DNA from: Candidatus Omnitrophota bacterium
GTDB taxonomy: Bacteria > Omnitrophota > Gorgyraeia > Duberdicusellales > 4484-171
Assembly (NCBI GenBank): GCA_041652815.1
Contig: JBAZGN010000004.1
Location: 79,890-143,889, forward strand
Direction: 5' to 3'
Length of the DNA: 64,000 bases
The translations under genes were made by a program, and so were the position numbers. Each line of letters begins with the position of its first letter. The first letter of the stretch is position 1. Shown here in pieces: positions 34,805 through 56,873 of the stretch. The notes beneath the pieces are model-generated. The model was not told where the DNA came from, made no database searches, and worked only from the letters and a program-made list of their open reading frames with translations.

Positions 34805-34881
34805 TAGAATAGTTATTTTAAAGATTTCTCGTCTCACTTTCGGTGAGACTCGAAATCCAAAAAATTACTTCGTAATTTTTT

Positions 34882-35150
34882 GGAGAGGTGGCCGAGTGGT
34901 TTTCCGCCACTGATGACTTTTTATATGTGGGCGGATCCGCCTCTGGCGGAAAGGCGCCGGTTTGTTCAATGAAACTTAGCCTTTTTGTGTGTAACCACAA
35001 AAAGGCTTTAGTTGAATTAATCCGACCAACGAAGTGGTGGCGGACTAAACCGGTGTACGATCGTAAGGTTGTACCTGGGGTTCCCCGCCACCTTAATAAA
35101 AAATATATAGGCGGGCGGGTCCGCCTGCGGCGGAAAATCCCCACCTTAAT
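34882..35150 (+). pseudogene. Degenerate tRNA-Ser-like copy disrupted by three insertions
   Basis: ggagaggtggccgagtggtt | insert | aaggcgccggtttg | insert | accggtgtacgatcgtaaggttgtacctggggttc | insert | tccccacc; the 3' acceptor does not pair. Confidence 0.6.
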
Positions 35151-35169
35151 TTATACATAAACAGCGCTT

Positions 35170-35445
35170 TTGCTAAGTAATATGCCGTGGATATATGTGT
35201 TGCGAAGTAGTAAAGATAATAAGCTTTACATCGGCAGTACGAGAGATTTAAAAAATCGTATAAAATTGCACAATGCGGGAAAAGTAAAATCGACAAAATC
35301 AAGAAAGCCATTTGAATTGTTACATAGTGAAGAATATGAGACAATAATAGAAGTACGCAAAGGAGAAAATTTTTTGAAAACTGGCCATGGTAGAGAATGG
35401 CTAAAGAATGAAATAGTAGCTTGGAAGGGTGGCCGAGTGGTTTAA
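35170..35445 (+). CDS. GIY-YIG domain nuclease (UPF0213/YhbQ-like, 91 aa)
   Basis: WIYVLRSSKDNKLYIGSTRDLKNRIKLHN is a GIY-YIG motif; the 3' end overlaps tRNA-Ser. Confidence 0.7.
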   Translation: MLSNMPWIYVLRSSKDNKLYIGSTRDLKNRIKLHNAGKVKSTKSRKPFELLHSEEYETIIEVRKGENFLKTGHGREWLKNEIVAWKGGRVV

Positions 35446-35513
35446 GGCGCCGGTTTGCTAAACCGGTGTACGATCGTAAGGTTGTACCTGGGGTTCAAAT
35501 CCCCACCCTTCCG
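35423..35513 (+). tRNA. tRNA-Ser(GCU)
   Basis: Type II tRNA: ggaaggg acceptor, loop ttGCTaa, long variable arm tgtacgatcgtaaggttgtac, T-arm tggggttcaaatcccca. Confidence 0.85.
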
Positions 35514-35546
35514 TGATTGATTAATAAATTAAATAATTAACGAATT

Positions 35547-37946: not shown

Positions 37947-38009
37947 GGTAAATCCAAACTTAAGTGTGTGTTGACGTAAAATAACAATTACGCTATAATT
38001 ACCCCTCGT

Positions 38010-38180
38010 TTGTTCTTTTACAAATTTATTCCCCGGTAGCCAAATTCGCCTTTTTCCACAATTTTGATAAAGGCGAATTTGTCCCGACGAACTCGGGGTA
38101 AATTTATGAAAGAAATTTACCCCGTATCTAGGTGAGTCGGGATAATAACATTGTTCTTTTACAAATTTATTCCCCGGTAG
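38010..38180 (+). repeat. 31-nt direct repeat (ttgttcttttacaaatttattccccggtagc), second copy includes the tRNA 5' end
   Basis: Copies at 38010-38040 and 38148-38178; hairpins between them. Confidence 0.6.
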
Positions 38181-38493
38181 CTCAATTGGTAGAGCGGCTG
38201 GCTGTGCGAGGCCGAAGGCCGAGCATCTCGAGGCGATAGCCGAGAGATCTTGAACTCAAGGTGTTAGCAGCTCTTATGGGAAACCGTAAGATGAAAAAGC
38301 GAGTAAATTCAGGGAAACCCCGACGTTACGTTGGGGCAATCCTGAGCCAAGCCCTGTATGGGAAGGTGCAGAGACTAGACACTCGCTGCCTAAATCCGAT
38401 GTGGACATGGCAAAGGTATAGTCCGACTCTCACAGTAATGTGAGTCAGCGTGTAACCAGTAGGTCGTAGGTTCGAGCCCTACCCGGGGAGCCA
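38171..38493 (+). tRNA. tRNA (Thr-UGU if spliced after U33; alternatively Asn-GUU) interrupted by a 247-nt group I intron
   Basis: 5' exon tccccggtagctcaattggtagagcggctggct, 3' exon tgtaaccagtaggtcgtaggttcgagccctacccggggagcca; intron 38204..38450 carries gcagagactaga / ggtatagtccg P7 elements and aaattcagggaaacc, gagccaagcc. Confidence 0.8.
38204..38450 (+). ncRNA. ORF-less group I intron (IC3-like)
   Basis: Conserved P3/P4/P7 sequences as in the Azoarcus tRNA-Ile and cyanobacterial tRNA introns; omega G; P1 ggct/ggcc with U.G at the splice site. Confidence 0.8.
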
Positions 38494-40107
38494 ATTCATT
38501 CTCTTATCAAACTGAGAGATAGAGCTGCCAGAAGAGCCTTTTTTAAGTTCTTCTGGCGTCTTTATTTCTGGTAGGTCATAGAAGGTAATCCTAATCTTTG
38601 AGGGATTCTCGTGATAGATAATCTTTTTGATAAGAAGATGTAGCAGTTCGCCTTGTTTGGTAGACGGCAGCTTATCAAATGTTTCACTGAACAATCTTAG
38701 GGTCTGAACTATAATAGCAGGGTCAAGTATCTTCGATTTTTCTCTTTCAATCTCAAGATTAAGTTCTTGAAGTCTGTTTTCTAAAGCCTCTTTTACTTCT
38801 TCAAGCTTTTCCAATGCCTCTTCAACAAGAGAGAATTTCTTCCGTTCGATAGACGCTATTAAAGGCTGTGCCTTGTTATTATTTTTGGTCAGCTTACCAA
38901 TAATTTCGGCTTTTTCTTTTTGTAAACCGGGTAGCTTGTTCTTAGATGATTTCATAGCAGCACTGACAATAGAGTCTATGATATTTTTGTGATTCGCTAT
39001 AAATTTGATTCTATCTATAACCAGATGTTCTAATTCTCTGGCAGGAGTGCTTTTGATACAGCAGGCGTTTTTATCCGAATGACCTACTCGCGTACATTTG
39101 TAATATAGATACGGCCTTCCTTTCTTTAGAGAATAGTTGGGCGACATCTGTGATTTGCAATGGTCGCACCAAACCAAGCCTCTTAGTAAATGACCATATT
39201 TATTTTCACTTACTGAACCTTTTGTTTGAGCATTTGAGTTAATGATACGCTGCACTCTATCAAATAAATTCTTGCTGATAATGGTTTTCCAATTCGCTTG
39301 AAAATACTCTCGTTCTTCTTTATCCCCTTTTCTTGTTATAGCCACAGTTTTACCTATGTAAACAGGATTCTTGAGAATATTCAATATAATACCTTCGGTA
39401 AATTTATTTCCTCCCTTGACATCACCCGTCTTGGTTTTCCACGTTTTTGTGCGATAGCCAAGACCATTAAAATATGTAGCGATACGATTTGCAGATTGCA
39501 CTTCGGTATATTTTGCGAAAATACGCTTTGCTATTTTTGTTTCTTTTGGGTTTACTTTCAGTATGCCTTTTTCGCTTGGATGAAAATCGTACCCTAAGGG
39601 AGGATATCCGCCGTGGAATAGGCCTTTTTTTGCACGATACCTCATTCTGTCTCTGGTTCTTTCGCTGGCAAGACGTCTTTCGAACTCGGCGAAACTTAGG
39701 AGAACCTGTAAGATTAACTTACCAGTGGCGTCAGCAGTACTAAATGTTTGACTGGCACAACATATATTTATACCGTGTTCTTCCAATTTAGGCCATATTT
39801 GGAAGAATTGCACAAGGTCTCTACTAAAGCGGTCGATGCTTTTGACAATTATCATATCAAATTTGCCCTGCTCAGCATCCTGTAATAGTCGTTTTAAGGC
39901 AGGTCTATCCAAAGTTCCGCCAGAGTAATTTCTATCATCGTATCTTGTTGGAATGAGTTTCCAGTGAGGGCGGGTTTTAAAAAAACTTTCGCATATGTCT
40001 CTTTGGCTTTCTATTGTATCACTTGGCGAAATTTCTTCTGGATCTTGGTCAGATATCCTTGTATATACTACGCAGGTAAATTTCTTCTCAGCGTCTTTTG
40101 TGAACAT
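38479..40107 (-). CDS. Large serine recombinase (resolvase N-domain + recombinase + zinc ribbon + coiled coil)
   Basis: 542 aa; N-terminal YTRIS(D)QD catalytic Ser region, DRFSRD; C-terminal CxxC Zn ribbon and coiled coil; the 3' end overlaps the tRNA. Confidence 0.85.
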   Translation of the reverse strand: MFTKDAEKKFTCVVYTRISDQDPEEISPSDTIESQRDICESFFKTRPHWKLIPTRYDDRNYSGGTLDRPALKRLLQDAEQGKFDMIIVKSIDRFSRDLVQFFQIWPKLEEHGINICCASQTFSTADATGKLILQVLLSFAEFERRLASERTRDRMRYRAKKGLFHGGYPPLGYDFHPSEKGILKVNPKETKIAKRIFAKYTEVQSANRIATYFNGLGYRTKTWKTKTGDVKGGNKFTEGIILNILKNPVYIGKTVAITRKGDKEEREYFQANWKTIISKNLFDRVQRIINSNAQTKGSVSENKYGHLLRGLVWCDHCKSQMSPNYSLKKGRPYLYYKCTRVGHSDKNACCIKSTPARELEHLVIDRIKFIANHKNIIDSIVSAAMKSSKNKLPGLQKEKAEIIGKLTKNNNKAQPLIASIERKKFSLVEEALEKLEEVKEALENRLQELNLEIEREKSKILDPAIIVQTLRLFSETFDKLPSTKQGELLHLLIKKIIYHENPSKIRITFYDLPEIKTPEELKKGSSGSSISQFDKRMNWLPG

Positions 40108-40312
40108 ATCCTCTTGCCCCCTTAGCTTAATTGACTTTGATTATATAGCAAAGTATAATAAATGACAATATTGCACAAGGAATGGAGGAGACTATGAGAC
40201 AATGCAAGAATCGTTAATGATTACTCGCGAAGTGGCTGAGTTGAGTTCCTCAGGGCTCGACAGATGAATCAGCGAGTGTGCTATTAGAAAAGATTAAACT
40301 GGATAAGAAGAA

Positions 40313-42697
40313 ATGAATCTCAAACCACTGCTTACAAAAATAAAGTATTATGCAACTACCTCTTGGACTCGAACAATAACTTTAAGTTCACACCTTCTTG
40401 AGAACCTTAAGAAATGCATTGTTGCGACTCGTAAGCGTATGATTTCCATTCGCCATAAACTTAAATCGATGATGGCTACCGCGCGACAGCGCGCCGGATT
40501 ATCTTATATACGAGTAATGAATTGTTATTTCACCGTGGCAGGTAGCGCTAAGAAGTGCTTTACAATTATTAGTAATTGTGCGGCTTCTATCTTCGGCTTA
40601 TTTATACTCTTTATTCTTTATATGCCATTGGCGCAGAGCGTAGTTGGTAAGATTAGCAATCTCGACGCCATATTTCTTGCGATAGGGGGTTTGATAGGTA
40701 CTATATTGGCCTTAGTTATCTCACTCTCAATAATCCCTATTCAAGCAGCTGCCGAAAGTTTCTCGTCCTCGATTATTCGACTATACAGAGAGGACAAGGT
40801 AACTCGATATATATTTGCATTGTTGTCAATTTTCTGTCTTATTTCTTTCCTAATGGCGATAGGTGAAGCATTTGGGTACGCAAAGGCAGTATTATTACCT
40901 ATAGCAATCTTGTTTGTTGCAATGTCCATTGATCTATTAAGGTGGCATCATCGCCACATAACAAATCTATTAGGATCCAATGATGCTATTAGCCAATTAT
41001 CGAGCACAGTTAAGTCTTATCTGGACAAGACTTGCAAGAACATTGCCTTTTGGGCCAGATTTAAATGGATGTTTTTACCAAAAGCAGAACAGGATAAATT
41101 ACCCGTTAAGGCAATGGAGCAGTTTTTGTCTCAACAATCTTACAATATAGGGCCGTTAAAGATTTGGTTAAACGAATTTGCAGAAGTAGCACATAAGGCA
41201 ATTGTAAAGCAAGAAGTATTAAGAGCTCAACTCGCGATATTTGCAATGGCAGATATTGCTTGTTATTTCTTGGACAAACGAAAAGATAATCTCCGCATTT
41301 ATGCAGAAACAGAAGCATTGGGGTTAGTTTTAGGCAGTGACGTGAATGATATCTTGACCCCAATCTATGAGCATTATCGCAATATCTCTCGTAATGCAAT
41401 AGATAAGAAAGTGGAAACGGCTGCGATTTGTGTAGTCCAAGCATTGGGTAAAATTTCTATACATATAACCAACCTTAAGTCTCCGGCATTCCATAAGAAT
41501 ACGGCGCCCTTAACCTATCTTCCAGTAGGATATTTGAGTACTTGTGTCGAGATGGCTCAAATAGAAAAAATGAATGATGTTGCATTACAAGGAGCCAATA
41601 TTCTTTTGGATGTTGTAAAGGCTTCTCCTGTCAATGTTGATATAGCGGATGTTCACCTTACCATACTCAAAGAACTAACGAAGATAGCTGTGGAATTTCT
41701 TGCAAAAGGCAATGTCGCTCTTAGTAACCACGTTATAACAAATATAATGACTGTGGGGCATATTGCTGTTGCGGGGAAACACTTTAACGTTGATGCAATA
41801 ATGAAACAGCTTTTGGATTATATATACAGTCTATTGGTAGGCGCAGTAACTCAACAACGACTTGCTCCAGCGACTTTCCTTAATTTGCCATTGACACCAC
41901 CGTATGACTTAACCCAAGAGGTTTCTTTGGGATATCTTGTTGCAAGAGCTCAAGATTTAATTGAGAAACCAGATGAGGAAAAGCACTGGATAAATCCGTA
42001 CAGCGATTTTATTGAACTAAATGAATCGATTACGCGTCATTTGTATAAGATTGGCGAGCAGATTGATTTCGGCCCCAATTTCCTTCTTTGGCATATAATT
42101 CATACGATAATGCACATCTCAAAAATTTTCTTTAGTCTATTACAAAAGCCAATAACAGACAATAGCGACCATATCAAGGAACTGAAAGATTGCTTCAAAT
42201 GGTATCTTAGTTTCTTCTGGCTTGTGTTTTCAAATAAGAAAACCTTTATTGAGCTGACATTTGCTGAAGAAGCCACAGACGGTCTTGCGGTTATCGGGAT
42301 GCTTTTCTACAGCATCGACCATAAAGATATCACTCAGATGTGTATTGATAACATTGCCTCTATTGCAGAATCCTATCAGGAGATAGCCAAACCAAATTCA
42401 CTCCCACAAGCAGCTTTTTCTTTTAATATAGTCGATGTTATAATGCCTCTTTGGCAGGTTCGTATTTTAATGGAAGCCAAAACAGATGCAGATTTCCTTA
42501 ATAAAATTGATAATAAGTTGGCAGTCTTCCTTAAAGGAAGGGTGATGTCCTTAGTGGGTGTTGAGCCTTTAGAAACAAGAAAACGGCAGCTACAAAGACA
42601 GCTTCAGGAAGAATTGCATTTTAGTCAATGGGAGAAGGCAGTAGGAGTACTTCAGCAACTTCTCAAACCTAACGATGTCAAGAATGATACAGATTGA
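40313..42697 (+). CDS. Hypothetical protein: N-terminal 5-6 TM then large alpha-helical cytoplasmic domain (island operon gene 1)
   Basis: 794 aa; no recognisable catalytic motif. Confidence 0.5.
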   Translation: MNLKPLLTKIKYYATTSWTRTITLSSHLLENLKKCIVATRKRMISIRHKLKSMMATARQRAGLSYIRVMNCYFTVAGSAKKCFTIISNCAASIFGLFILFILYMPLAQSVVGKISNLDAIFLAIGGLIGTILALVISLSIIPIQAAAESFSSSIIRLYREDKVTRYIFALLSIFCLISFLMAIGEAFGYAKAVLLPIAILFVAMSIDLLRWHHRHITNLLGSNDAISQLSSTVKSYLDKTCKNIAFWARFKWMFLPKAEQDKLPVKAMEQFLSQQSYNIGPLKIWLNEFAEVAHKAIVKQEVLRAQLAIFAMADIACYFLDKRKDNLRIYAETEALGLVLGSDVNDILTPIYEHYRNISRNAIDKKVETAAICVVQALGKISIHITNLKSPAFHKNTAPLTYLPVGYLSTCVEMAQIEKMNDVALQGANILLDVVKASPVNVDIADVHLTILKELTKIAVEFLAKGNVALSNHVITNIMTVGHIAVAGKHFNVDAIMKQLLDYIYSLLVGAVTQQRLAPATFLNLPLTPPYDLTQEVSLGYLVARAQDLIEKPDEEKHWINPYSDFIELNESITRHLYKIGEQIDFGPNFLLWHIIHTIMHISKIFFSLLQKPITDNSDHIKELKDCFKWYLSFFWLVFSNKKTFIELTFAEEATDGLAVIGMLFYSIDHKDITQMCIDNIASIAESYQEIAKPNSLPQAAFSFNIVDVIMPLWQVRILMEAKTDADFLNKIDNKLAVFLKGRVMSLVGVEPLETRKRQLQRQLQEELHFSQWEKAVGVLQQLLKPNDVKNDTD

Positions 42698-43916
42698 AAT
42701 TAAAGACAATAAGAAAGTTGAGTTTGCCTTAGAGGAGTTGAAGAAAACAGTGCACGATAATGTATTTCACCACTCCTTATGTAGTAATATTCTGCTTTTT
42801 AACGTTGACATAAAGGGAATTAAAAAAATCAGGGAAAGACTAAATTTGCTTCTTGTTTCCATTTCGAGATTCCAGAAATACACTTCGCATTCAATAGAAG
42901 ATTTTAAGAGGGCGATTTTGGAAGAAATTGAAGCAAGGAAAGGAATAAAACCCGAAGTTTTCCGTTTTATTTTTTATCTTAACATCGAACGTAGTAGTAT
43001 TGAAAAGAAACGGTTTTTTGCATTAAGAGGAAGTAAGCTTTTTAGCAGGACCCATAGTTTTATTGATAGGAATTTTAATTTAGAAAAATTTATTGCGGAA
43101 TCAAGACTTTATGTCAATGTTAAAATCCCACCGAGCCCTGCGATGTTCCAACCTTTTGAATGTATAGTTTCAGGAAGGAATGATGGAGAGGCATTTTGGA
43201 AAGCGTTTGATATATTTGAATTATTTAGAGCTATACTCAATTTTAGTAATAATTTTGGTGTCATTTCTGTTCATTTCGGCAGTAGGCACGCTTACTTAAA
43301 TAGTTTTTTGCCTTCACCGTTTTGTTTAGTTTATAATTCGAAAAGAGAATACCTTCATTTTAGATATGATTTAATCGAATACAAATATAAGACCTTTAAT
43401 AGAACCGGGGCATTCTTTAAACCCGAAGTTTTTAGACTGCTATTAAAAGTTTTTCGAGATGAAATCAAGGAAGAAAGCATAGAGGTAATTATATTAGAAG
43501 CCCTATTTCATTATGTAAAAGCGCTGGATTCTTTGGAGTGGGAGACAGATTTTCTTAAATTATGGAGGATTTTGGAAGTAATTACATTCTATTCTGAAGA
43601 ATCGACTATTAAGCTAACAGGCAATCGAATTAAACTATTATTTCATCAAACTCCCAAATGGAATTATGTCATTGATTTTTTATGTTCACTAAGGAATGAA
43701 TTGGTCCACAAAGGTAACTTCCCGGAAGAAGGTTCAGACCAAGTAAGTGCCTTGAAGTTCATAGTTGAAAATGCAATATCGATATTGATATCTATGCGAA
43801 AAGACTTTAAAGACAAAGCTGCTTTGAGGCTCTTTTATGAAAATGATTCTTCTGGCACAGGTGATTTAAGAAAGAAAATCTCTGTGATTAAAAAAATATT
43901 AGCTTACAGGAAATGA
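42675..43916 (+). CDS. HEPN-domain (Rx4H) Abi-like protein (island operon gene 2)
   Basis: 413 aa; C-terminal LRNELVHKGNF HEPN-type R-X4-H motif; 23-nt overlap with gene 1. Confidence 0.5.
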   Translation: MSRMIQIEIKDNKKVEFALEELKKTVHDNVFHHSLCSNILLFNVDIKGIKKIRERLNLLLVSISRFQKYTSHSIEDFKRAILEEIEARKGIKPEVFRFIFYLNIERSSIEKKRFFALRGSKLFSRTHSFIDRNFNLEKFIAESRLYVNVKIPPSPAMFQPFECIVSGRNDGEAFWKAFDIFELFRAILNFSNNFGVISVHFGSRHAYLNSFLPSPFCLVYNSKREYLHFRYDLIEYKYKTFNRTGAFFKPEVFRLLLKVFRDEIKEESIEVIILEALFHYVKALDSLEWETDFLKLWRILEVITFYSEESTIKLTGNRIKLLFHQTPKWNYVIDFLCSLRNELVHKGNFPEEGSDQVSALKFIVENAISILISMRKDFKDKAALRLFYENDSSGTGDLRKKISVIKKILAYRK

Positions 43917-43946
43917 GCAATATACTTTAACGACGAATCGGCGCGC

Positions 43947-45269
43947 GTGTTGTTGGAAAAAATAAAGTCGAGTAAGAGGACGAAAAAAATGGAAGAAAAT
44001 AATTTAGTGCAACGTATAGAGGTACTTTATGGTCAGTTATCTTCGCTTGGAGAAACGATAAAATCATCTATCAACCATAAAGATAAAAGCGATTCTTCTT
44101 ATCCTCAGGCCGCCAAAAGATACAATGTTATACTAAAACAGCTACAAGAATTAACTAAAGACATCGACTATATTCGAGAAAGTATATCACAGTTCACCGA
44201 ATATGAAGAAAAGAGCTTTATGTATCACGGTAATTACGGATACGCAATCAACCTATTAACAGATATCAATATGTTAGTTTCTTCTATTTCTAAATTTAAG
44301 AGCAGTATTGCTTTGGAGGCGAAAAAGATACAAGGCGAAAAGCCCTTGATATTTATTAGCTACGATGGAGACGAATTAGCACTCGCGGATTTCGTAAAAG
44401 TTATTATTACCAGATGGGCAGCAGACAAGATTGAAACATTCGTTGCTCGAAGAGATATTGGTTCCGGAGACAATCCGCTCAAGACTATGATGGAACTTAA
44501 GTTAAAAAATGCTGATGCTATAATTACAATTTGTTCAATTAAGTCTAAAGAAAGTGGTTGGGTGTGGTGGGAATCGGCTGTTTTATGGGCTAAAGACCGG
44601 AAAATTTTTCCTTTATGTAGCAATATATCTCCGGGTGGTTTTGGTGCCCCACTTAATTTGGTATCTCAAGGAAAATACTTTTTCGACGAAACTGAGTTTA
44701 TGGAAACTATTCAAGTGGTTTGTTCTGAATTTGACATCCAGACAGTAATAAAAGAGTTTTCTCAGGAAGAGAAAAAAGAGTATGAAAAGCTAAAGAGTGA
44801 ATATTCAATACCGAAGACAACCTCAAAAATAGATGTTGTTTTTGAAACGCTGGAAATGACTCAAAACTTGCACAAGTATTCCTTGATATTTGATGTATGG
44901 AATCTTGGAGATAAGGCATTTGAGAACGTAGTGGCTGAACTGTGGTTTCCTACTAAATATCTTGAAAAGACTGAATGGAATTATTCTCATTTACAAGCGG
45001 TTGAGTCAGAAGAAAAGAGGGGATATACTTGTTTGACCTTTGATTTTTCTGCTTTGCCAGACACCGGGAAGAGACAATTTGGGAAAGATTTGTTGCCAAA
45101 GAAGCGCTTGAGAATATTTGGTAAAGGTGGGATTTCAATACTCCAATATCATATGACCCACGATTTATGGTGGGACGTAACGAAGTATGAAGTTGTATGG
45201 AAGGTATACATCAATGGTGGAGCTCCCCACGAAGGTAAGATTTCTTTGCAGTCACTTCAACAATTTTGA
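43947..45269 (+). CDS. Coiled-coil + TIR-like domain protein (island operon gene 3)
   Basis: 440 aa; residues ~125-230 read IFISYDGDE...RRDIGSGDN...SGWVWWE, resembling TIR box1/box2 and the SxWCxxE helix with a conserved Glu. Confidence 0.5.
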   Translation: MLLEKIKSSKRTKKMEENNLVQRIEVLYGQLSSLGETIKSSINHKDKSDSSYPQAAKRYNVILKQLQELTKDIDYIRESISQFTEYEEKSFMYHGNYGYAINLLTDINMLVSSISKFKSSIALEAKKIQGEKPLIFISYDGDELALADFVKVIITRWAADKIETFVARRDIGSGDNPLKTMMELKLKNADAIITICSIKSKESGWVWWESAVLWAKDRKIFPLCSNISPGGFGAPLNLVSQGKYFFDETEFMETIQVVCSEFDIQTVIKEFSQEEKKEYEKLKSEYSIPKTTSKIDVVFETLEMTQNLHKYSLIFDVWNLGDKAFENVVAELWFPTKYLEKTEWNYSHLQAVESEEKRGYTCLTFDFSALPDTGKRQFGKDLLPKKRLRIFGKGGISILQYHMTHDLWWDVTKYEVVWKVYINGGAPHEGKISLQSLQQF

Positions 45270-46468
45270 AGGAAGGAACTATGAAGATTGATTGGACAAA
45301 TATTTGGTCTTGGATAGTTGTAACGATAGCGTCTATAGCTGGGATAGTTACTTTTTTATTGAATATTGGCAAAATCTTTTCTGGAATCGGAAAGGCTTGG
45401 CATTGGCTTTATCGTAGAATTACTCGATATCAACCGCGAGTGCCGAAAGAGACATTACGTTTAATACCGAAACCACGTCATAGCTGGTGGAGTATGGGGA
45501 CATTCGATGGCGAACCTTCTATGCAGCTTGTCTGTGATTGGTACGTTACAAACATAACAAATCAAGCTGTTAAGGTGTGTGGCGCCAGAGTACGGAAACC
45601 GAAAGTTGATGGTCATATGATGGTTCGACATCAAAAAGAAAATATATACGGGGGATACTATATCCCTCCTCAGTATACCACTGACGGAAGGGCAGATTTT
45701 TGGATTCATCCGCCTATAAAGAAAATTGGAGAGCCATTAGTCCTTGATCTCGAATTTATTGACCAATACGGAAATATTCATAGGGTTAAAAAGGTTAAAT
45801 TTAACGCTCCTCAACCAAAGAAGAAGGATGTTGAACCACCGATGGAATCAATAGCAACCATAAAAGACCCTATCGAAAAAGAGATTTTAAGCGTTCTTCA
45901 AAGCGAGGCGCATCGCTATAAAGACTGCGGACGACGAGTTGGAGGACTTGGTAGTGTTGTTCTAAACTATCAGGGGCGCAAAGTTACGGGTGTGGGAACT
46001 GATTGGAGAACGGCTGATTCCCCAGAAATGCAATCGATTGTTCCTGACCCACAGAGCGCAAAACTTGAATCCGACAATGGGACAATCCTTGTACGCTATT
46101 TTCAATCACTTACAGGAAAAGATATACAACGATTTTGTGAAGTTTTGCTTCAACGAATATCCAAAGGCAATGCTTATGCGCCAATCGGCTATTTTTTTCT
46201 GTATGTAGGATATCGAACAAATATATTGAAAGGTGTATTAAAATCTGCTAAAGATAATTTGAAGGGTGATTCGGGGTACGGATTCAGTGATTTACTTCGA
46301 CTTTTAGATGGTATACTTAAATATGAATACCAAAACTTTAATTCAGAAACCTTAGATATTATAGAACAATTTATTGATGGGTTGGACGATGAGTGTCTCT
46401 TCCGTATCCCAGAACGTGTTCGAGCAATAAGGGCATATATTCTATCTAATAAAATTATCTCATCATAA
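45266..46468 (+). CDS. Membrane-anchored hypothetical protein (island operon gene 4)
   Basis: 400 aa; one N-terminal TM; ATGA overlap with gene 3. Confidence 0.45.
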   Translation: MKEGTMKIDWTNIWSWIVVTIASIAGIVTFLLNIGKIFSGIGKAWHWLYRRITRYQPRVPKETLRLIPKPRHSWWSMGTFDGEPSMQLVCDWYVTNITNQAVKVCGARVRKPKVDGHMMVRHQKENIYGGYYIPPQYTTDGRADFWIHPPIKKIGEPLVLDLEFIDQYGNIHRVKKVKFNAPQPKKKDVEPPMESIATIKDPIEKEILSVLQSEAHRYKDCGRRVGGLGSVVLNYQGRKVTGVGTDWRTADSPEMQSIVPDPQSAKLESDNGTILVRYFQSLTGKDIQRFCEVLLQRISKGNAYAPIGYFFLYVGYRTNILKGVLKSAKDNLKGDSGYGFSDLLRLLDGILKYEYQNFNSETLDIIEQFIDGLDDECLFRIPERVRAIRAYILSNKIISS

Positions 46469-46765
46469 GTCTAATAATTGCTAACAAATTATATAATGAA
46501 TTATGATATATTAAGTTTGTCAGTAAAGTATCTTCCGTAAGACAGGATTAAAAAAGGAGGCGGAGTATAATCTAACAATAAAGGTTTCTATATAGAACAT
46601 AGATTTTCCTGATTTACAAACCAACTTGCAAGAGGAAAAGACTATGTCTCGAGCGTACAAACGTTTCGGGGCAAGCGGTCTTTCACTTTTACTTGCAAGT
46701 TGGGTGAGGGACTTAAAAATGCTTGCCCCCCTTTTATTTTTGGGCAGGCAAGGAGGTGTCTGTAT

Positions 46766-47156
46766 GAAAGAAGCAATTTATCTGATAGTTATCTTAACGT
46801 TAGTAGGCGGCTGCGCAAGCTTATCTGAAAAAGGAGATATTTATCTTCATAATTTAGAAAGACATAAACACTCTAAGGAAATAGTAGTGAGCAGTTCTTA
46901 TGACGAGGCATTTAATGCAGTAATAGAAACTTTTCGCGATTTGGGCATCAATGTGCTCAAGAAGGATTATGAAAATAAGAAAATTTTAGGCTCGCTTTAT
47001 CCTGAGCATTATATGAATCATTACGGAGTGTTTTTTAGCGATATGGGAGATAACAAGATAAAAATCACCCTGAAGGCAACGGGTTTTCTTATTAACGAAG
47101 ATACGATTTTGGAGAAAATAAACGAAACATTATCACAACCTAAACTTAAAAAATAA
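46766..47156 (+). CDS. Lipoprotein
   Basis: The internal Met of ORF 46626..47156 gives MKEAIYLIVILTLVGGCAS lipobox. Confidence 0.45.
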
Positions 47157-47194
47157 GAGATTATTATTGTTTGGAGAACAAATAAAGAAGGAGG

Positions 47195-47512
47195 ATGGAT
47201 ATGAAAAATTTAATTCTGGTTTTTGTAGCTATTCTAATCTCTTCTGGTTGCGCAACGTGCTTTGAAGATTTACATATCAGGCAACAGGAAGCCTCTCTAT
47301 ATACTGGAATGTCATATTATGAAGTAGTAAAGATAGTAGGTAGAGAACCGAACCCTGCTCGAGATACGATTCTTCAGGGAACAGACTCAGAAGGTCAATG
47401 GATGACTTGGGTGGTCGGACAAAGCAAACTATTAAGGAGCAACTCAAATTTTACTCAGACTTATCATTTAAAATTCAGAAACAGGAAGCTTACTGAATGG
47501 TGGAGTTCTTAG
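47195..47512 (+). CDS. Lipoprotein
   Basis: LISSGCATC lipobox; 105 aa. Confidence 0.45.
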   Translation: MDMKNLILVFVAILISSGCATCFEDLHIRQQEASLYTGMSYYEVVKIVGREPNPARDTILQGTDSEGQWMTWVVGQSKLLRSNSNFTQTYHLKFRNRKLTEWWSS

Positions 47513-47576
47513 TAAATAATTATAAGCTTCTTGACACCAGCATTATATTAGTATATACTATTTAGTAAATACTAAT

Positions 47577-48191
47577 ATGAAATGGTCAATTTCTTCAAAT
47601 CAGCCAAAGCTTTGTAGCGCTACAAAAATACTTAAAGAGCTTGGTGGAAAACTTAGCAAGAAGATGTTTGAGTATCTCCGGGATACCTTTCGTCTAATTC
47701 CACCTCCCATCAAAAGAAGTGAAGGTAAAGGTATCATAGCCCTATATCCGGAATCCGTTGTGTTTTATTTGCGCCGAATTTTGATTAAGCAGAGCAAAGG
47801 ATTTACCTTCAAGCAGATTAAAGAAAAGCTAAAAATTGATACAGAGCGAATTTTCCAAGAAACCGATGCCTTGAAGCGTCAGTTCGAATTAGAGAAAGAA
47901 TTTAAGAGGCGCTTAGTTCGTGGTTTGAAGACGGGTGACCATCCCGCTTTTGATGATGGAAACGTTATTGGTAGTGCTAATAAGCAGAGTGAAGACATAG
48001 AGTCAATGATAGAGATTGTTAAGAAGGAGTTTAAGAGACAAGCAAGCAAATTAGACGATGTATCAATCAAGGCTATAAGGACCTTGAGAAAGAAATTGGA
48101 TGAACTGGAAAAGCTTGAAGGCGAAAAAAAATTTTCGCAATATGTAATCGAAGAAATTACAAAGGTGGCAAATGAAAAGACAAGGGATTAA
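47577..48191 (+). CDS. MerR/excisionase-like HTH protein with C-terminal coiled coil
   Basis: 204 aa; the N-terminal ~80 aa resemble MerR-type winged HTH; directly upstream of a recombinase. Confidence 0.35.
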   Translation: MKWSISSNQPKLCSATKILKELGGKLSKKMFEYLRDTFRLIPPPIKRSEGKGIIALYPESVVFYLRRILIKQSKGFTFKQIKEKLKIDTERIFQETDALKRQFELEKEFKRRLVRGLKTGDHPAFDDGNVIGSANKQSEDIESMIEIVKKEFKRQASKLDDVSIKAIRTLRKKLDELEKLEGEKKFSQYVIEEITKVANEKTRD

Positions 48192-48741
48192 ATATTTTAC
48201 AAGTGAATTAAAAGGAATCTTGATCAAGACATTAAAATTGCGCCGAGATGCAGTTAGATCATATGCGCTATACGATTTAATGCTTAATACTGGTTTGCGT
48301 TTGGCTGAGGTTATGGGACTTGATGTTGGAGACGTAGAAAACAGAACAGTTCTCGAGGTGATTGGCAAGGGTTCTAAATTTCGAGAAATACCTCTCAATA
48401 AGGCAATCAGAGAGCATATACAAGATTTTTTGAGTTGGAAGAAAAAGAAGGGTGAAGGTTTGTCTGCGGATTCGCCATTATTCGTTAGTAGACTTGGAAA
48501 ACGTCTTAGTAAGCGAGCCGTGCAGCGAGACCTCGCTAAATGGGTTAAGCAAGCTGGAATCGAGGGGCACTTTACGCCGCACTCTCTTAGGCATACGGTT
48601 GGAACAGAATTGTTAAATAAGACAGGGAATTTACGGGTAGTGCAGGAATTTCTCGGCCACGCAGATATATCAACAACTCAGATATATACTCACGTTAGCA
48701 GGGAGCAGATACAGCAGGCTGCTGACCTTTTGGCGATATAA
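48172..48741 (+). CDS. Tyrosine recombinase catalytic domain (truncated, no N-terminal core-binding domain)
   Basis: 189 aa; R(LRLAE)...HSLRHT...GH...Y(IYTHV) catalytic tetrad region. Confidence 0.6.
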   Translation: MKRQGIKYFTSELKGILIKTLKLRRDAVRSYALYDLMLNTGLRLAEVMGLDVGDVENRTVLEVIGKGSKFREIPLNKAIREHIQDFLSWKKKKGEGLSADSPLFVSRLGKRLSKRAVQRDLAKWVKQAGIEGHFTPHSLRHTVGTELLNKTGNLRVVQEFLGHADISTTQIYTHVSREQIQQAADLLAI

Positions 48742-48828
48742 CGACGCATTATATAGAAAAAGCGTCGTTCAATAGCGTTTTTGTGCATAAAGATGGTCAA
48801 AAAATAGGGTATAAAGCGGCGTTCGGAG

Positions 48829-49665
48829 GTGGACAAAATGGACAAAATTGGACCAAGATGGTATAGGGATGAGTCAGGTATTCACGTAGATGTCGAACTT
48901 TTGCCTGAAATAAATATCCTTGTTGAGTTTAACCTGACCGAGAACGAATACAATCAACAAATAGGTATGCTTCTTAATTGGCGTATTACTCGCATAGAAC
49001 AAGAAGCCAAACTGCATTTTGCTGAAAAGAAACCTTTCCGTGTGATAGCTGATATTGTTGGTGTCTCTAAGTCACAGGTTTGCAATGATATTGCTGATTA
49101 TCGTAGAACAATTTTAAAGAGCATCGGGCAAGATATACAAGCTAACGGGTCGGCGCTTGGTCTGTTGGTAGAATTAACTGTGCAGGTTGCGAGCAGAATA
49201 CAGCTTTATTGGGATAAGTATAACGAACTTCAGCGTTCATCGCAAGTGCTGGGAATTCTTTTAGATAGGACATATAACAGGCTTCAAAAGAATCCTAATG
49301 CGAGGGTAACGAATGCCAGCACCTTAAAGGATATAGCTCGAGAGAGACGCGCAATAGCAGAATCACAAAAGAATACCCTTGCGCAGCTTAGAGCAGAAAC
49401 CCAGCAATTGCTAAATATTTATGAGGCTTTTGGTTTGACCAGCATAGAGGCTCTCAGTTTGGTGAACACTGGCGAAGGATATCTACAACAAAAAATAGAT
49501 GAGGTTAAGAGTCTTATGCCTGTGTTAATAAAAATTATCAAGTTAGAAGTTACAGATGAGACACAAAAACGAAACATTTTCGGGAGGCTTGCAAATTTTA
49601 TTAGGGAAAATGCCCTTTCAAAACATTTAAACAATAGTGAGGTGGATTATGAATTTAGAGTATAG
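48829..49665 (+). CDS. Hypothetical protein with putative HTH
   Basis: 278 aa; RVIADIVGVSKSQVCNDI HTH-like segment. Confidence 0.35.
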   Translation: MDKMDKIGPRWYRDESGIHVDVELLPEINILVEFNLTENEYNQQIGMLLNWRITRIEQEAKLHFAEKKPFRVIADIVGVSKSQVCNDIADYRRTILKSIGQDIQANGSALGLLVELTVQVASRIQLYWDKYNELQRSSQVLGILLDRTYNRLQKNPNARVTNASTLKDIARERRAIAESQKNTLAQLRAETQQLLNIYEAFGLTSIEALSLVNTGEGYLQQKIDEVKSLMPVLIKIIKLEVTDETQKRNIFGRLANFIRENALSKHLNNSEVDYEFRV

Positions 49666-49939
49666 CCCAAAAGAAAGATACAACAAGATAGTCGAGATAT
49701 TAGCAGAGGGCGTTATTAGTCTTATCAGATACAGGTTGCGCTTATCTGCAATGTTACACAAGGGTATGAATGAATGCTTGAGTAGAATTATGGATATAAT
49801 GTCTAAGGATAAGTCAGTTAAGTCTTGTGCGATTAGTGGTTATTTTGTCGAGGCTACTATCGAGAAAAATAAACAAAAACGTTATATTGAGCCATTTGGA
49901 AAGGTTTATTCTTTTTCTCAAATGATTACACGCGATTAA
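49637..49939 (+). CDS. Hypothetical protein
   Basis: 100 aa; overlaps the previous ORF. Confidence 0.3.
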   Translation: MRWIMNLEYSPKERYNKIVEILAEGVISLIRYRLRLSAMLHKGMNECLSRIMDIMSKDKSVKSCAISGYFVEATIEKNKQKRYIEPFGKVYSFSQMITRD

Positions 49940-49953
49940 CGCGAGTATCGACA

Positions 49954-50745
49954 ATGTCTTATATTTGTAAAACAGGAAAAGGCGAAGAAGCAGACCCAAG
50001 TTTAGCCATTTTTCCAATCCTCAAAGAGGTAGATGGAAAAAGATTGGTTGTGGGCTCTGCTTTTTTTATTACTAATACGGGAATTTTTGTTACAGCAAAA
50101 CACGTTATAAAGGATGTATTCGACGAAAGAGGCAAGCAAAAATATCCAATATTTGGTTTACAAATTTTACCCGATGATAAATATATAATAAGACCAGTCC
50201 TTAGCTGTTATTCCAATACAAAATCTGATGTGGTGGTCGGTGCATTAGAGCAACAAAGGCATAAAATTACCGGTGAGCCACGATCCAATAAGCTTCTTGT
50301 TCTAACTTTAATTGAGCCAAAACAAGGGGCAAGGATAGTAACTTATGCTTATCCGGGGTCTAAAACCGAAATAGAAGGTAACGTGCAAACCCTTACATTA
50401 AAACCTGAATATTATGATGGAGTATTGGAAGATTATCTTCCGGAAGGTAGAGACAAATCAATGCTTCCTTTTCCGTGTTACAGGGGAAGTATAAGAATTA
50501 TTGGTGGGGCCAGTGGAGGTCCGGTGATGGATGAGCAAGGTCGAGTATTTGGGATAAATTGTACAGGATTCGAAGGAACGAACATCAGTTTTTTTGCCAG
50601 AATAAATGAAATTTTAGCATTGAGAGTTGACGATTTGGTGATAAATGGCGTTCACAGAGATAGTATTGATATTATTGAATTAGCTGAAAGAAAAGTAATT
50701 ATATTTGAACCGTCTTTTAAACGAAGTCAGATAATAAAAAAATAG
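49954..50745 (+). CDS. Trypsin-like (S1/chymotrypsin fold) serine peptidase
   Basis: TAKHV (His), GGASGGPV (Ser) motifs. Confidence 0.65.
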   Translation: MSYICKTGKGEEADPSLAIFPILKEVDGKRLVVGSAFFITNTGIFVTAKHVIKDVFDERGKQKYPIFGLQILPDDKYIIRPVLSCYSNTKSDVVVGALEQQRHKITGEPRSNKLLVLTLIEPKQGARIVTYAYPGSKTEIEGNVQTLTLKPEYYDGVLEDYLPEGRDKSMLPFPCYRGSIRIIGGASGGPVMDEQGRVFGINCTGFEGTNISFFARINEILALRVDDLVINGVHRDSIDIIELAERKVIIFEPSFKRSQIIKK

Positions 50746-50762
50746 TTCCCTCATTTATTTAG

Positions 50763-51026
50763 TTAAGACACGGGAAACATCCTTCTGAGATAATTAACTG
50801 GAATCCTTTCCTTCATTGATACTGGTAGGTCTTCAGGTATATAGTAAATCGGTTTTAAAATCAAACGTTTTTGTCCGTGGGCCGTTCTCAGGATATCAAA
50901 CTCAAATTCATCCGTAAATGCAGTTTGAAGAGAGAGCGTCTCGGGGAGCCATAAAAAAATTGCCCCACCCATTTTCGGGTGGGGTTTAATTTTTTTATGC
51001 TTTTTGTATAAGGCTCGAACCGTCAA
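50763..51026 (-). CDS. Hypothetical protein
   Basis: 87 aa; the only minus-strand ORF near the island right end. Confidence 0.3.
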   Translation of the reverse strand: MTVRALYKKHKKIKPHPKMGGAIFLWLPETLSLQTAFTDEFEFDILRTAHGQKRLILKPIYYIPEDLPVSMKERIPVNYLRRMFPVS

Positions 51027-51221
51027 GGGAGTTTGAGGGAAAGTATTTCCCTCAAATTATTTAAGCTTCTTCGTAAGGAAGGGGAGTGACAGGTGTGAAT
51101 CCGAAGGATGAGCCCGCCAGAGAGGGGAAACGTAGTTTCCTCTTTGTGGAGAGGAATGAGCGAAGTGAATGACGAAGGTTCGCCGAAGGGAAAGCCCTAC
51201 CCGGGGAGTTTTGACAAAAAT

Positions 51222-51248
51222 AGCCCAGCTTTATGCTGGGCTTTTTTG
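51222..51248 (+). terminator. Rho-independent terminator inside repeat copy A
   Basis: agcccagc ttta tgctgggct + tttttg; the same terminator occurs at 51972-51998 and 60273-60300. Confidence 0.6.
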
Positions 51249-51374
51249 TCAAATTGCCTTGGTAAAAGGGCGAGAACACCTGCCGAGTCTGTGTAAATTT
51301 ACTTCGTAAATTTACACAGTATCCAGCGAGGCGGGACGAGAGCCCATTCCAACTTCAAAAGACGGGGGAGTTTT

Positions 51375-51412
51375 TGACTTTTAAACCCTCTGTGATAATA
51401 TATTGCAGAGGG
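51375..51412 (+). promoter_or_regulatory. Promoter/operator module copy 1 (TTGACT-N16-TAATAT; palindrome AACCCTCTG..CAGAGGGTT around the -10)
   Basis: tttttgacttttaaaccctctgtgataatatattgcagagggtt. Confidence 0.6.
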
Positions 51413-51464
51413 TTTTTTGGTTTATTTTTTTAAAGTTAATTGGTATAAAAAAGGAGGGTTGGAT

Positions 51465-51908
51465 ATGAGAGGAAGGTGTATAATTATTTTATCCTTAGCG
51501 ATAAACCTATTTTTTTGTTTTGTTTCGTTTAGTGCGACTCTTCCTGATGAGAATGCTGCAAAAGATTTAACTAATAAAATTATGACAAAAATTGCCAACG
51601 GAGACATCGATAATGCCTTTAAGCTTATGAAGCCTTACGTCCCTATTAGTGCAACAGAAATTGATTCAGCTGCAATTCAGACGAAAGCACAATTAGAACA
51701 GTATGGGCAAAGGTATGGTGAACCGATTGGTTTTGAATTTATTGATTCAACAAAAATTGGTGATTCCGTGTTCAGATTTCGTTATCTTGCAAAAATGAAA
51801 AATAACGCTTTGCCCTGGGTTTTTATTTTTTATAAAACCACAGACGGATGGACATTGAATAACTTTAGTTGGAAGGATAGCGTAGTAAACTTATTTGAAA
51901 AGAATTAA
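51465..51908 (+). CDS. Secreted hypothetical protein
   Basis: ATG after AAGGAGGG; signal peptide MRGRCIIILSLAINLFFCFVSFSA. Confidence 0.5.
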   Translation: MRGRCIIILSLAINLFFCFVSFSATLPDENAAKDLTNKIMTKIANGDIDNAFKLMKPYVPISATEIDSAAIQTKAQLEQYGQRYGEPIGFEFIDSTKIGDSVFRFRYLAKMKNNALPWVFIFYKTTDGWTLNNFSWKDSVVNLFEKN

Positions 51909-51944
51909 CATTAGTTTCTTAACATCAACCAGTTGCTAAATTCG

Positions 51945-52200
51945 TCCAACCAGGGGAGTTTTGACAAAAATAGCCCAGCTTTATGCTGGGCTTTTTTGTC
52001 AAATTGCCTTGGTAAAAGGGCGAGAACACCTGCCGAGTCTGTGTAAATTTACGAAGTAAATTTACACAGTATCAGCGAGGCAGGTGGAGAGCCCTACCCA
52101 ACTCAACCTTAATATATGTATACAGAGAGTTGTCCCTTTAGGGGTTGGGGAGTTTTTGACTTTCTAACCCTCTGTGATAATATATTGCAGAGGGGTTTGT
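51945..52200. repeat. Long composite repeat, copy B
   Basis: Near-identical to copy C 60247-60500, including the perfect 31-nt palindrome ctgtgtaaatttacgaagtaaatttacacag (52039-52069). Confidence 0.7.
52154..52195 (+). promoter_or_regulatory. Promoter/operator module copy 2
   Basis: tttttgactttctaaccctctgtgataatatattgcagagggg. Confidence 0.6.
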
Positions 52201-52250
52201 TTACAATATAAAATACACATTATATATAGTAGAAAAACATAGGAGGTTCG

Positions 52251-53459: not shown

Positions 53460-53470
53460 TCATGAGGTAT

Positions 53471-53505
53471 TTTTGACTTTCCAACCCTCTGTGATAATAT
53501 ATTGC
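53471..53505 (+). promoter_or_regulatory. Promoter/operator module copy 3 (right palindrome half absent)
   Basis: tttttgactttccaaccctctgtgataatatattgccagcc. Confidence 0.5.
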
Positions 53506-53564
53506 CAGCCTCGCATAGCTCGGTAGGCGGGCAGAGAGTTTCTGATTGAGGTGCAATTCAGTAT

Positions 53565-53906
53565 ATGGAAATAGTTACAAATACATTGGATCTTAATAGG
53601 CTTAGAGAGATGGCAGCTGGTATTTTTGGCAACCTAGTAAAAGCAGTTGTCGACGTTGATAAAGAACTACTCGCAGTTGACGGGGAGTTACATTCTGATT
53701 TAGAAGCGTTGTTACTTGAGAGCGGTTCAAGGCAAAAAAGCCTTTGGGGGATTAATCTTTATCCGGAGATGCAGGGGAAAGATTTTATTGAGTTTGATTC
53801 CGTGATAAATATGCGTCCTTCCCAAGATAACAGGAGCCGCGGAGTGGATGATGAACAAATACGCAAGAAAATTATAGAAGTTGTTAGCAAGAGGATTAAA
53901 CAATGA
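53565..53906 (+). CDS. Hypothetical protein
   Basis: 113 aa; 4-nt overlap with the next ORF. Confidence 0.4.
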   Translation: MEIVTNTLDLNRLREMAAGIFGNLVKAVVDVDKELLAVDGELHSDLEALLLESGSRQKSLWGINLYPEMQGKDFIEFDSVINMRPSQDNRSRGVDDEQIRKKIIEVVSKRIKQ

Positions 53907-54235
53907 GTTATCAACATAAAAGCCTTGCGGCTGGACGTTGGAAGCAATTATCATTTATTGAACAAATGGCAAACATTGGAAGCGAGGTAGAACGCGCTCT
54001 CAACTGGCAAGCTAAACATAATCCCGCCTACACGCAGCAGGCATTTGAGCGTTCTCTGGAATTAATAGATTTGACTATGGATAATTTAAAAGGGTTCCCC
54101 CGCCTTAAAGAACTCGCCCGTTTACGAGAAGCAATCGTGGATTATTTTTTTGGAGAAAACCAGTTTAAATTTACTGATAAATCTTTAAGGGGTTATTTCC
54201 TAAATTTTATATTTGCAGCCCGCAGGAACCATTAG
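53903..54235 (+). CDS. Hypothetical protein
   Basis: 110 aa; ATGA overlap with the upstream ORF. Confidence 0.4.
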   Translation: MSYQHKSLAAGRWKQLSFIEQMANIGSEVERALNWQAKHNPAYTQQAFERSLELIDLTMDNLKGFPRLKELARLREAIVDYFFGENQFKFTDKSLRGYFLNFIFAARRNH

Positions 54236-54333
54236 CGCTGTTAAACAGCATAACACATTTTTTTGTTTTATTCAGACTCACCAAAAAAAATCGAGCTCAA
54301 TAGACAATATAGATATTTTTCCCAATAGGGCAT

Positions 54334-54375: not shown

Positions 54376-54416
54376 TTTTCTTTGGGATAAAATAATAAAG
54401 AAGATGGAGGTAGATT

Positions 54417-56858: not shown

Positions 56859-56873
56859 CTACTATGTCAGTTT

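Follow-up and report, generated by a model that had tools for sequence, protein, structure and literature searches.

A tRNA-Asn(GUU) gene of Candidatus Omnitrophota split at position 35/36 by a compact group I intron, with a putative serine-recombinase island at its 3' end

Williams (2020, bioRxiv 10.1101/2020.01.27.920355) enlarged the list of intron-bearing bacterial tRNAs from the four classical ones to 21 settings, and the "Asn.4Ug" class of that work, as it is cited in PMC13011429, is occasionally miscalled "Thr.2Ug." Nakagawa et al. (2026, PMC13011429) described group I introns at position 35/36 of tRNA-Asn, tRNA-Asp, and tRNA-Tyr, reported precise in vitro self-splicing at that site for one Asn and one Asp intron from Patescibacteria, and noted that ARAGORN and tFind often call such introns Thr 33/34. 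Among 4,934 complete genomes, those researchers counted 28 introns at 35/36, in Patescibacteria (19), Cyanobacteriota (3), and Nitrospirota (3), plus a single one in each of Bacillota_A, Bipolaricaulota, and Pseudomonadota, 25 of the 28 being classed as IA; endonuclease-bearing members were reported from Patescibacteria only, and data from draft genomes were called for. The supplement of that survey holds at least one Omnitrophota entry, an fMet 33/34 intron, and no description of tRNA-Asn group I introns in Omnitrophota was found in the literature that we searched. Here we report on a 64,000-nucleotide (nt) stretch of DNA from a Candidatus Omnitrophota bacterium (assembly GCA_041652815.1, contig JBAZGN010000004.1, positions 79,890 to 143,889 of the forward strand; "the window"), in which a tRNA-Asn(GUU) gene is split by a group I intron of 247 nt and adjoins a putative integrated island. 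A first-pass annotation of the window had remarked that tRNA-Thr and tRNA-Asn are not classical intron hosts, which is true but out of date, as the Asn class and the confusion of Asn with Thr have both been published (bioRxiv 10.1101/2020.01.27.920355; PMC13011429). The components of the split gene are as follows.

38171 to 38493, + strand: split tRNA-Asn(GUU) gene, as assigned below; two exons around a 247-nt insert
38171 to 38205, + strand: tRNA-Asn 5' exon, positions 1 to 35, ending C32 U33 G34 U35; 100% identity with nt 1 to 35 of the gene in the relative L002
38206 to 38452, + strand: group I intron, 247 nt, without an open reading frame (ORF), omega-G at 38452; identified by RF00028, our own covariance model, and covariation
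38453 to 38493, + strand: tRNA-Asn 3' exon, U36 to A76, CCA encoded; 100% identity with the final 41 nt of the L002 gene

An Rfam scan of the window matched the group I intron family RF00028 to positions 38242 to 38445 with 82.3 bits (E value, 2.2e-19), above the gathering score of 50, so that the group I intron that the first-pass annotation had placed in a tRNA anticodon loop is upheld; the exons and the 247-nt insert that it quoted are present where it had put them, its four core motifs are all found in the window sequence, and the Rfam scan that it had proposed returned both introns of the window, the other lying in a tRNA-fMet gene considered below, above the gathering score. With default settings, ARAGORN missed both split genes, listing no tRNAs other than those for Arg, Lys, and Ser in the window, and with introns allowed (-i) it labeled the Asn locus tRNA-Thr(tgt), with an intron at 33-34. 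When 247 nt are excised, three registers give a perfect cloverleaf of 76 nt: Thr-UGU, with the junction after U33; Thr-GGU; and Asn-GUU, with the junction after U35. A U preceding the intron together with a terminal G is offered only by Thr-UGU and Asn-GUU.

Relatives distinguish between these two registers. The relatives are loci in Candidatus Omnitrophota metagenome-assembled genomes (MAGs; designated by L numbers) that were fetched through homologues of the adjacent RecR protein. In L002, whose RecR is 96% identical, an uninterrupted tRNA-Asn gene lies at the equivalent place downstream of recR, with the anticodon loop CTGTTAA, and it is identical at 76 of 76 nt to 38171-38205 joined to 38453-38493; intron-less tRNA-Asn genes are also found at five further loci (L028 to L031 and L041) and are 96 to 97% identical to the joined exons. 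A junction moved by 1 or 2 nt yields another product, and the intron-less allele is reproduced by the 35/36 register only. A group I intron occupies the identical site in 13 further Omnitrophota loci (RF00028, 75 to 101 bits), and every one has a G at its end in the 35/36 register; because these introns end in CUG, UUG, or UCG before TAACC, the base two positions before the intron end is not G in any of the 13, and the Thr register would leave all of them without a terminal G. We assign the gene as tRNA-Asn(GUU) and place the intron (38206 to 38452) between positions 35 and 36, because the L002 orthologue is identical, because the 3' ends of the homologues agree, and because of the P1 and P10 pairings described below.

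The first-pass annotation had preferred splicing after U33, which would make the gene a tRNA-Thr(UGU) with its intron at 38204 to 38450. The Thr register does offer a U at position -1 and a terminal G, its product folds as a cloverleaf, and the intron mode of ARAGORN makes the Thr call, but we consider this reading exceedingly improbable: its product, GGCUUGUAACC, is unlike the intron-less orthologues, which read GGCTGTTAACC; the homologous introns do not share its terminal G; U1-A72 and G73 agree with Asn orthologues; and in the conserved P1 helix U33 pairs with A and not with G, a pair that marks no splice site. The same Thr miscall by ARAGORN and tFind has already been published and experimentally corrected (PMC13011429). 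The comparison with orthologous tRNA loci that the annotation had suggested thus settles the register as 35/36 and contradicts the preferred site, and it is the second option given there, Asn with splicing after position 35, that matches the L002 gene throughout.

The internal architecture of the intron, on which this assignment also draws, comprises the following elements.

38263 to 38272, + strand: internal guide sequence, GUUA and then GCAGCU (P10 and P1 pairing)
38273 to 38290, + strand: P2 hairpin, CUUAUGG-GAAA-CCGUAAG, with a GAAA tetraloop; 6 of 7 pairs changed on both sides among homologues
38299 to 38444, + strand: catalytic core, P3 to P9, with the P3/P7 pseudoknot, P4-P6, P8, and P9 with a GUAA loop (Rfam, covariation)

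P1 is formed by GCAGCU (38267 to 38272) with the exon end GGCUGU (38200 to 38205) over 6 base pairs (bp), and U35 stands in its U·G wobble (U38205·G38267), a position at which 12 of 14 aligned sequences have U·G; directly before GCAGCU, GUUA pairs with UAAC, the first four bases of the 3' exon, as a 4-bp P10. The arrangement of GCAGC followed directly by P2 is kept in all Omnitrophota copies and in 14 of 14 published 35/36 introns of tRNA-Asn, tRNA-Asp, and tRNA-Tyr, which were transcribed from the tables of PMC13011429. The guide is followed in order by P2, P3, P4-P6, P7, P3', P8, P7', P9, and the terminal G, and the window intron has no hairpin between P7 and P3', the latter coming directly after the former. 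P7 (38371 to 38377 with 38419 to 38424) is nearly invariant and is paired in 88% of alignment cells, and P3 shows compensatory changes in 6 of 6 pairs.

A covariance model built from the window intron and its three closest relatives recovered 13 full-length Omnitrophota tRNA-Asn introns and one copy cut by a contig end, and it matched the fMet intron of the window more weakly (79.6 bits). The first-pass annotation had named a failing covariance model as evidence against the intron; this did not occur, with RF00028 and our own model both matching. The covariation alignment points to a fold maintained by selection: 93.9% of cells are in standard pairs and 36 of 61 pairs are changed on both sides; none of 500 shuffles reached the observed pairing measures, and slid partners gave 38 to 49% pairing. 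Compensatory changes in P2, P3, P5, P8, and P9 are also visible in a plain MAFFT alignment.

P8 carries the tetraloop-receptor-like sequence CCUAAA...CAUGG in the window and the canonical CCUAAG...UAUGG in L020, L025, and L009. When the intron is set beside introns of the IC3 type, its GAAA loop on P2, receptor-like P8, GUAA loop on P9, and adjacent P7 and P3' make up a compact architecture with which the IC3-type label appears to be compatible. When the window intron was aligned globally, pair by pair, with 17 tRNA introns from the literature, the scores ranged from 129 to 186 and no nearest relative stood out.

Between the 5' exon and the guide lies one further element.

38206 to 38262, + strand: P1 loop extension (L1), 57 nt, apparent remnant of an HNH endonuclease insert; both ends match the larger L1 of relatives

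The 5' ~22 nt and the 3' ~30 nt of this loop match the ends of the 280- to 390-nt L1 of L082 and L107. The P1 loops of copies from metagenomes start with GCGAAGCCGAAGGCCGAGCA and finish with CAYCGNGARNTNCAYGCNCAAGTTA directly before GCAGC, and the window loop, which reads GCGAGGCCGAAGGCCGAGCA...CCGAGAGATCTTGAACTCAAGGTGTTA directly before GCAGC, matches them at both ends. The description of the intron as ORF-less in the first-pass annotation is correct in that there is no genuine ORF, the sole frame of at least 60 amino acids (aa) in the intron (38261 to 38443) lying over the ribozyme core and having no Pfam match, but it overlooks the remnants of an endonuclease gene that the P1 loop keeps. 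The window copy would most simply be an intron whose endonuclease gene was lost by deletion.

The introns of L009, L005, and L037 (516 to 626 nt) have a P1-loop ORF with a CxxC...HH...CxxCH pattern, and an HNH-like ORF was read in these three and in eight metagenome copies. The HNH assignment follows from this motif, from the L037 ORF, which passes the PF01844 (HNH) cutoff, and from a BLASTP match of the L009 ORF (55% identity; E value, 4e-44) to the endonuclease that a tRNA-Asn intron of Paceibacteria, listed in PMC13011429, encodes; the Pfam HNH match of the L009 and L005 ORFs is below the cutoff or absent. A scan of metagenomes with the 31-nt P7'-P9 segment returned 31 contigs, about 24 of them in tRNA-Asn, and tRNA-Asn introns with the 5' exon on the contig are mostly 500 to 570 nt long, a length from which most of the metagenome copies are judged to have a large L1 insert. 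The mobility of the Asn intron is supported by the presence/absence polymorphism among relatives together with the HNH-encoding copies, and the combination of endonuclease-bearing copies and intron-less alleles in close relatives is that of the usual homing cycle, from which we infer homing.

The exact P7'-P9 segment (AUAGUCCGACUCUCRCAGUAAUGYGAGUCAG) also occurs in introns that precede 23S-rRNA-like sequence (GCTTAAGGTAGCGTAAT.CCTTGTC...); the metagenome contigs that carry it outside tRNA-Asn are L085, L086, L092, L096, and L108, with L100 (in a tRNA-Met) and L087 (in some other setting). These non-Asn introns score 33 to 71 bits with the Asn-intron model and are only distantly similar over the remainder, and the idea of a recent movement of the intron between host genes was dropped, since what they share is a module.

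A more tentative proposal, which we think somewhat less probable than its opposite, is that the Omnitrophota tRNA-Asn introns form an undescribed compact IC3-like branch of the 35/36 class that carries the HNH endonuclease of the IA-type Patescibacteria introns. Were this true, either the endonuclease or the whole intron would have moved between two phyla of ultra-small bacteria, and all stages of the homing cycle, endonuclease bearing, deleted (the window copy), and intron-less, would be represented at one Omnitrophota locus.

The second intron of the window lies 18 kilobases (kb) upstream.

19349 to 20084, + strand: split tRNA-fMet(CAU), exons 19349 to 19382 and 20045 to 20084 (RF00028, PF11645, ARAGORN -i)
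19383 to 20044, + strand: fMet group I intron, 662 nt, site 33/34 (RF00028 match at 19783 to 19996, 63.7 bits)

This intron-bearing tRNA, spliced after U33, had been recognized in the first-pass annotation, and the Rfam match agrees. It carries a frameshifted gene for a PD-(D/E)XK endonuclease (PF11645), in which frame 0 reads MDTK...VLRP and then a stop, the rest (GDRLSYDLGVDFQGEF...) lying in frame +2; the gene is either a pseudogene or the product of a sequencing error. Among the introns compared, the best pairwise match of the fMet intron is the fMet intron of another Omnitrophota genome, GCF_004102945.1 (268, versus 178 for the Asn intron of the window). The Asn and fMet introns are 65% identical over aligned core columns, which is about equal to the identity between Asn intron subtypes, and core identity by itself fails to separate the two lineages. 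Because the best match of the fMet intron is another fMet intron and its endonuclease is a different one, the two introns of the window are, on sequence comparison, not copies of each other, the fMet intron belonging to a separate, site-specific lineage. Their distance of 18 kb, which had been offered as a sign of intron spread, is not one by itself, given that the fMet intron is closer to the fMet intron of another genome.

Upstream of the split tRNA-Asn gene, two features may bear on its expression.

37971 to 37999, + strand: sigma-70-type promoter, TTGACG, 17-nt spacer, TATAAT (11 of 12 consensus matches)
38010 to 38150, + strand: 141-bp insertion between promoter and tRNA (direct repeat D14, homology to L003 and L005)

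The promoter is kept in L002, and in L003 and L005 the tRNA comes directly after it. The insertion consists of a first copy of the leader with tRNA nt 1 to 11 (38010 to 38040) and a 110-nt insert (38041 to 38150) that folds into two long hairpins (-47.7 kcal/mol); a second leader copy, from 38151, runs into the actual tRNA-Asn gene. The insert is thus flanked by a repeat of 31 to 37 nt, composed of the leader and the first 11 to 16 nt of the tRNA (38010 to 38187; direct repeat D14, 37 nt, 95% identity), and the homology of L003 and L005 spans recR to the first copy and then continues straight into their tRNA.

It is at this point that a decayed locus has to be considered, in which the ribozyme no longer splices and the gene is a tRNA pseudogene, the loss of the endonuclease and the upstream insertion being signs of decay. 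The endonuclease gene is deleted from the window intron, the 141-bp insertion parts the promoter from the gene, and the functional reading of the locus is a prediction from sequence. The window intron nonetheless retains intact all core helices, the U·G pair, the omega-G, both loops (GAAA and GUAA), and the receptor-like motif; the exons are identical to those of the intact L002 orthologue, and an active ribozyme without an endonuclease gene is the norm among tRNA introns, such a gene being present in only 12 of 333 (PMC13011429). We hold decay to be very unlikely and predict that the window intron is almost certainly functional.

Related arrangements occur at two other places. In L030 (6866 to 7249), the intact, intron-less gene is preceded, 308 nt upstream, by a copy of tRNA-Asn nt 1 to 21, and the intervening DNA holds an ORF that resembles, by eye only, a small GIY-YIG protein; this looks like a cassette that inserts in the 5' part of a tRNA gene and restores the gene. 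The tRNA-Ser(GCU) region of the window (34880 to 35514) shows the same theme, with the first 23 nt of the tRNA at 34880 to 34902 and an exact 39-nt internal copy at 35045 to 35083, both upstream of a small GIY-YIG gene at 35170 to 35445 (PF01541; E value, 2e-16), the end of which overlaps the intact tRNA-Ser at 35422 to 35514.

The 3' end of the tRNA-Asn gene is the apparent attachment site of a second mobile element.

38475 to 38490, + strand: left copy of a 16-nt direct repeat, AGCCCTACCCGGGGAG, exact copy; end of the T-loop, 3' strands of the T-stem and acceptor, and discriminator
51193 to 51208, + strand: right copy of the 16-nt repeat; the flank and terminator beyond it resemble the native sequence after tRNA-Asn in L005
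38479 to 40107, - strand: large serine recombinase, 542 aa (Pfam Resolvase, Recombinase, and Zn_ribbon_recom)
38491 to 51192, no strand assigned: putative integrated island of about 12.7 kb, bounded by the repeats and made up of the recombinase and cargo

The 16-nt sequence occurs twice in the window without a mismatch (chance expectation, 0.03). Both the tRNA 3' end and the repeat contain the last four codons and the stop codon of the recombinase. The right copy was found through a BLAST match of L005 to window positions 51193 to 51229 and was confirmed afterwards; the flank that follows it agrees with the sequence after tRNA-Asn in L005 at 17 of 21 nt. A copy of the tRNA 3' end of 21 to 25 nt with at most 3 mismatches was sought in the window, and none was found. 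Besides the recombinase, the island encodes a TIR-domain protein, an ORF of 189 aa comprising the catalytic domain only of a tyrosine integrase, a trypsin-like peptidase, a weak match to DUF2254, and unknowns. Among the relatives, L004 and L014 have recombinases about 30% identical to that of the window that end inside the same tRNA, and L008 has another recombinase ~390 nt from tRNA-Asn; in eight others, no recombinase lies within 2 to 6 kb downstream of tRNA-Asn, and their downstream genes are unlike the window beyond 51209, the 21-nt native-like flank alone matching. The 42 nt that follow the tRNA are the same in the window and in L002, which has no intron; island and intron therefore vary independently of each other, and the attachment of the island at tRNA positions 58 to 73 is unrelated to the intron.

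The region beyond the tRNA might instead be ordinary variable genome content, with the recombinase and the genes downstream of it belonging to no integrated element. Long repeats are not a requirement of serine recombinases, the relatives do not conserve the gene order downstream and no clean empty site was found, a tblastx comparison of the sequence downstream of tRNA-Asn in 16 relatives with the window gave no conserved gene order that would mark the far end, and PADLOC matched no system model to the island cargo beyond a protease-domain hit. The exact repetition of the tRNA 3' end 12.7 kb away, the recombinase stop codon within that repeat, the presence in relatives of three different recombinases beside this tRNA, of which two terminate within its 3' end, and the resemblance of the sequence after the right repeat to the native flank of L005 make this explanation improbable, if less so than those considered for the intron. 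The mobile island that the first-pass annotation had attached to this tRNA, with a recombinase adjoining the tRNA and the two exact repeats far apart, is supported, and its integration would have been mediated by the recombinase.

Downstream of tRNA-Asn lie short noncoding elements of ~200 to 340 nt, each terminated by a second copy of the 3' 14-mer of the host tRNA: L003 (6746 to 6947, with a further copy at 7824), L005 (7353 to 7660), L025 (10563 to 10916), L030 (7233 to 7498), and the window (51080 to 51208), where the element is the right end of the 12.7-kb island. The second 14-mer copy covaries with the host tRNA (CCCTCGCC in L003), and a conserved ...GGTTCGYCGAAGGGNAAA... motif stands before it in L003, L005, and the window. 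These elements may be scars or miniature derivatives of the island.

From the observed anatomy, orthology, insertion site, covariation, and repeat, we are highly confident in an explanation that combines a tRNA-Asn(GUU) gene carrying a compact, ORF-less 35/36 group I intron from a lineage spread by an HNH endonuclease, which this copy has lost, with a separate 12.7-kb serine-recombinase island. We envisage that the split gene would be transcribed from the promoter at 37971 to 37999 and that the intron would fold into P1 to P10, the 5' splice site being marked by the U·G wobble in which GCAGCU, paired with GGCUGU, sets U35. The attack after U35 would come from an external guanosine, with GUUA holding the 3' exon (UAAC) through P10, and the terminal G (38452) would then enter the G-site, so that the exons are joined into a normal 76-nt tRNA-Asn. 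The Asn 35/36 ("Asn.4Ug") lineage would spread via the HNH homing endonuclease of its P1 loop, and the window copy, its endonuclease gene deleted, would now be immobile. Separately, the serine-recombinase island would have integrated at the tRNA 3' end and rebuilt that end with its own 16-nt copy.

A number of points weigh against this explanation or parts of it. P10 is just 2 bp or is absent in some of the published relatives, the covariation alignment was fitted to our own model and so favors the structure, and the window copy, alone among the Omnitrophota copies, permits the alternative U33/G register. Transcription and splicing of the window copy, as well as the excision and exact crossover point of the island, are predictions from sequence; the 141-bp insertion could affect expression of the split gene, which may or may not be the only tRNA-Asn gene of the genome; and because short elements of the kind described above occur in relatives, the history of the region is more complex than one integration.

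The locus adds a member from a new phylum to a recently described class and is not a new kind of intron; the understanding of group I introns is unchanged by these findings. What does change is the range of the Asn 35/36 class, which is extended to Omnitrophota, where the intron is common, being present in 14 of about 35 tRNA-Asn loci recovered, and HNH-bearing 35/36 introns exist outside Patescibacteria. A gene of this kind that is missed, or called Thr, leaves its genome seemingly without tRNA-Asn and distorts tRNA-based estimates of the completeness of Omnitrophota MAGs; the published remedy, comparison with intron-less homologues, gives an unambiguous answer at this locus.

Other features of the region are listed for completeness. 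The window from 51160 to 62510 holds 7 or 8 repeated intergenic modules (TTTTGACTTT..CCCTCTGTGATAATATATTGCAGAGGGTTTTTT), promoter-like and with a hairpin, before successive small genes, as well as longer repeats of 128 to 142 nt. Tandem 15-nt repeats lie at 55906 to 56244 within a 614-aa ORF, and an IS-type rve transposase is found at 58115 to 58930. In L020, a locus from a complete Omnitrophota chromosome, positions 87 to 204 match a c-di-GMP-I-GGC riboswitch (RF03167, 66.8 bits) upstream of the recR region.

Of the known systems, the Asn.4Ug class is the closest to the window intron, which shares with it the host tRNA, the insertion point, the guide of GCAGC and then P2, and the two-base Asn/Thr annotation trap; a homologous HNH endonuclease (55% identity) occupies the P1 loop of its relatives, and the endonuclease is optional among members of the class, the window copy being without it. 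The host phylum, Omnitrophota, is outside the phyla in which the complete-genome survey recorded 35/36 introns, and the published cyanobacterial, Nitrospirota, and several Patescibacteria copies have an extra hairpin between P7 and P3' that the window intron lacks. The classical IC3 tRNA introns, those of cyanobacterial tRNA-Leu(UAA) and tRNA-fMet, have a compact P1 to P10 of ~200 to 250 nt, as does the window intron, and have in common with it the GAAA loop on P2, the receptor-like P8, the GNRA loop on P9, and the core motifs AAUUCAGGGAAACC, GAGCCAAGCC, GCAGAGACUAG, and AUAGUCC, but they occupy other tRNAs at other sites (34/35, 33/34, or 36/37, versus 35/36) and have other guide sequences; the Azoarcus tRNA-Ile IC3 intron likewise resembles the window intron in its compact architecture and motifs. 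With the cyanobacterial and Omnitrophota fMet 33/34 introns (I-Ssp6803I type), it is the fMet intron of the window that shares the site and the endonuclease family, PF11645, whereas the Asn intron shares the general core only. The island, finally, is like the genomic islands that target tRNA genes in having a recombinase beside the 3' end of the tRNA, a direct repeat of that end at its far boundary, and variable cargo; the usual recombinase of such islands is a tyrosine integrase, whereas the window element has a large serine recombinase, the reading frame of which ends inside the tRNA.

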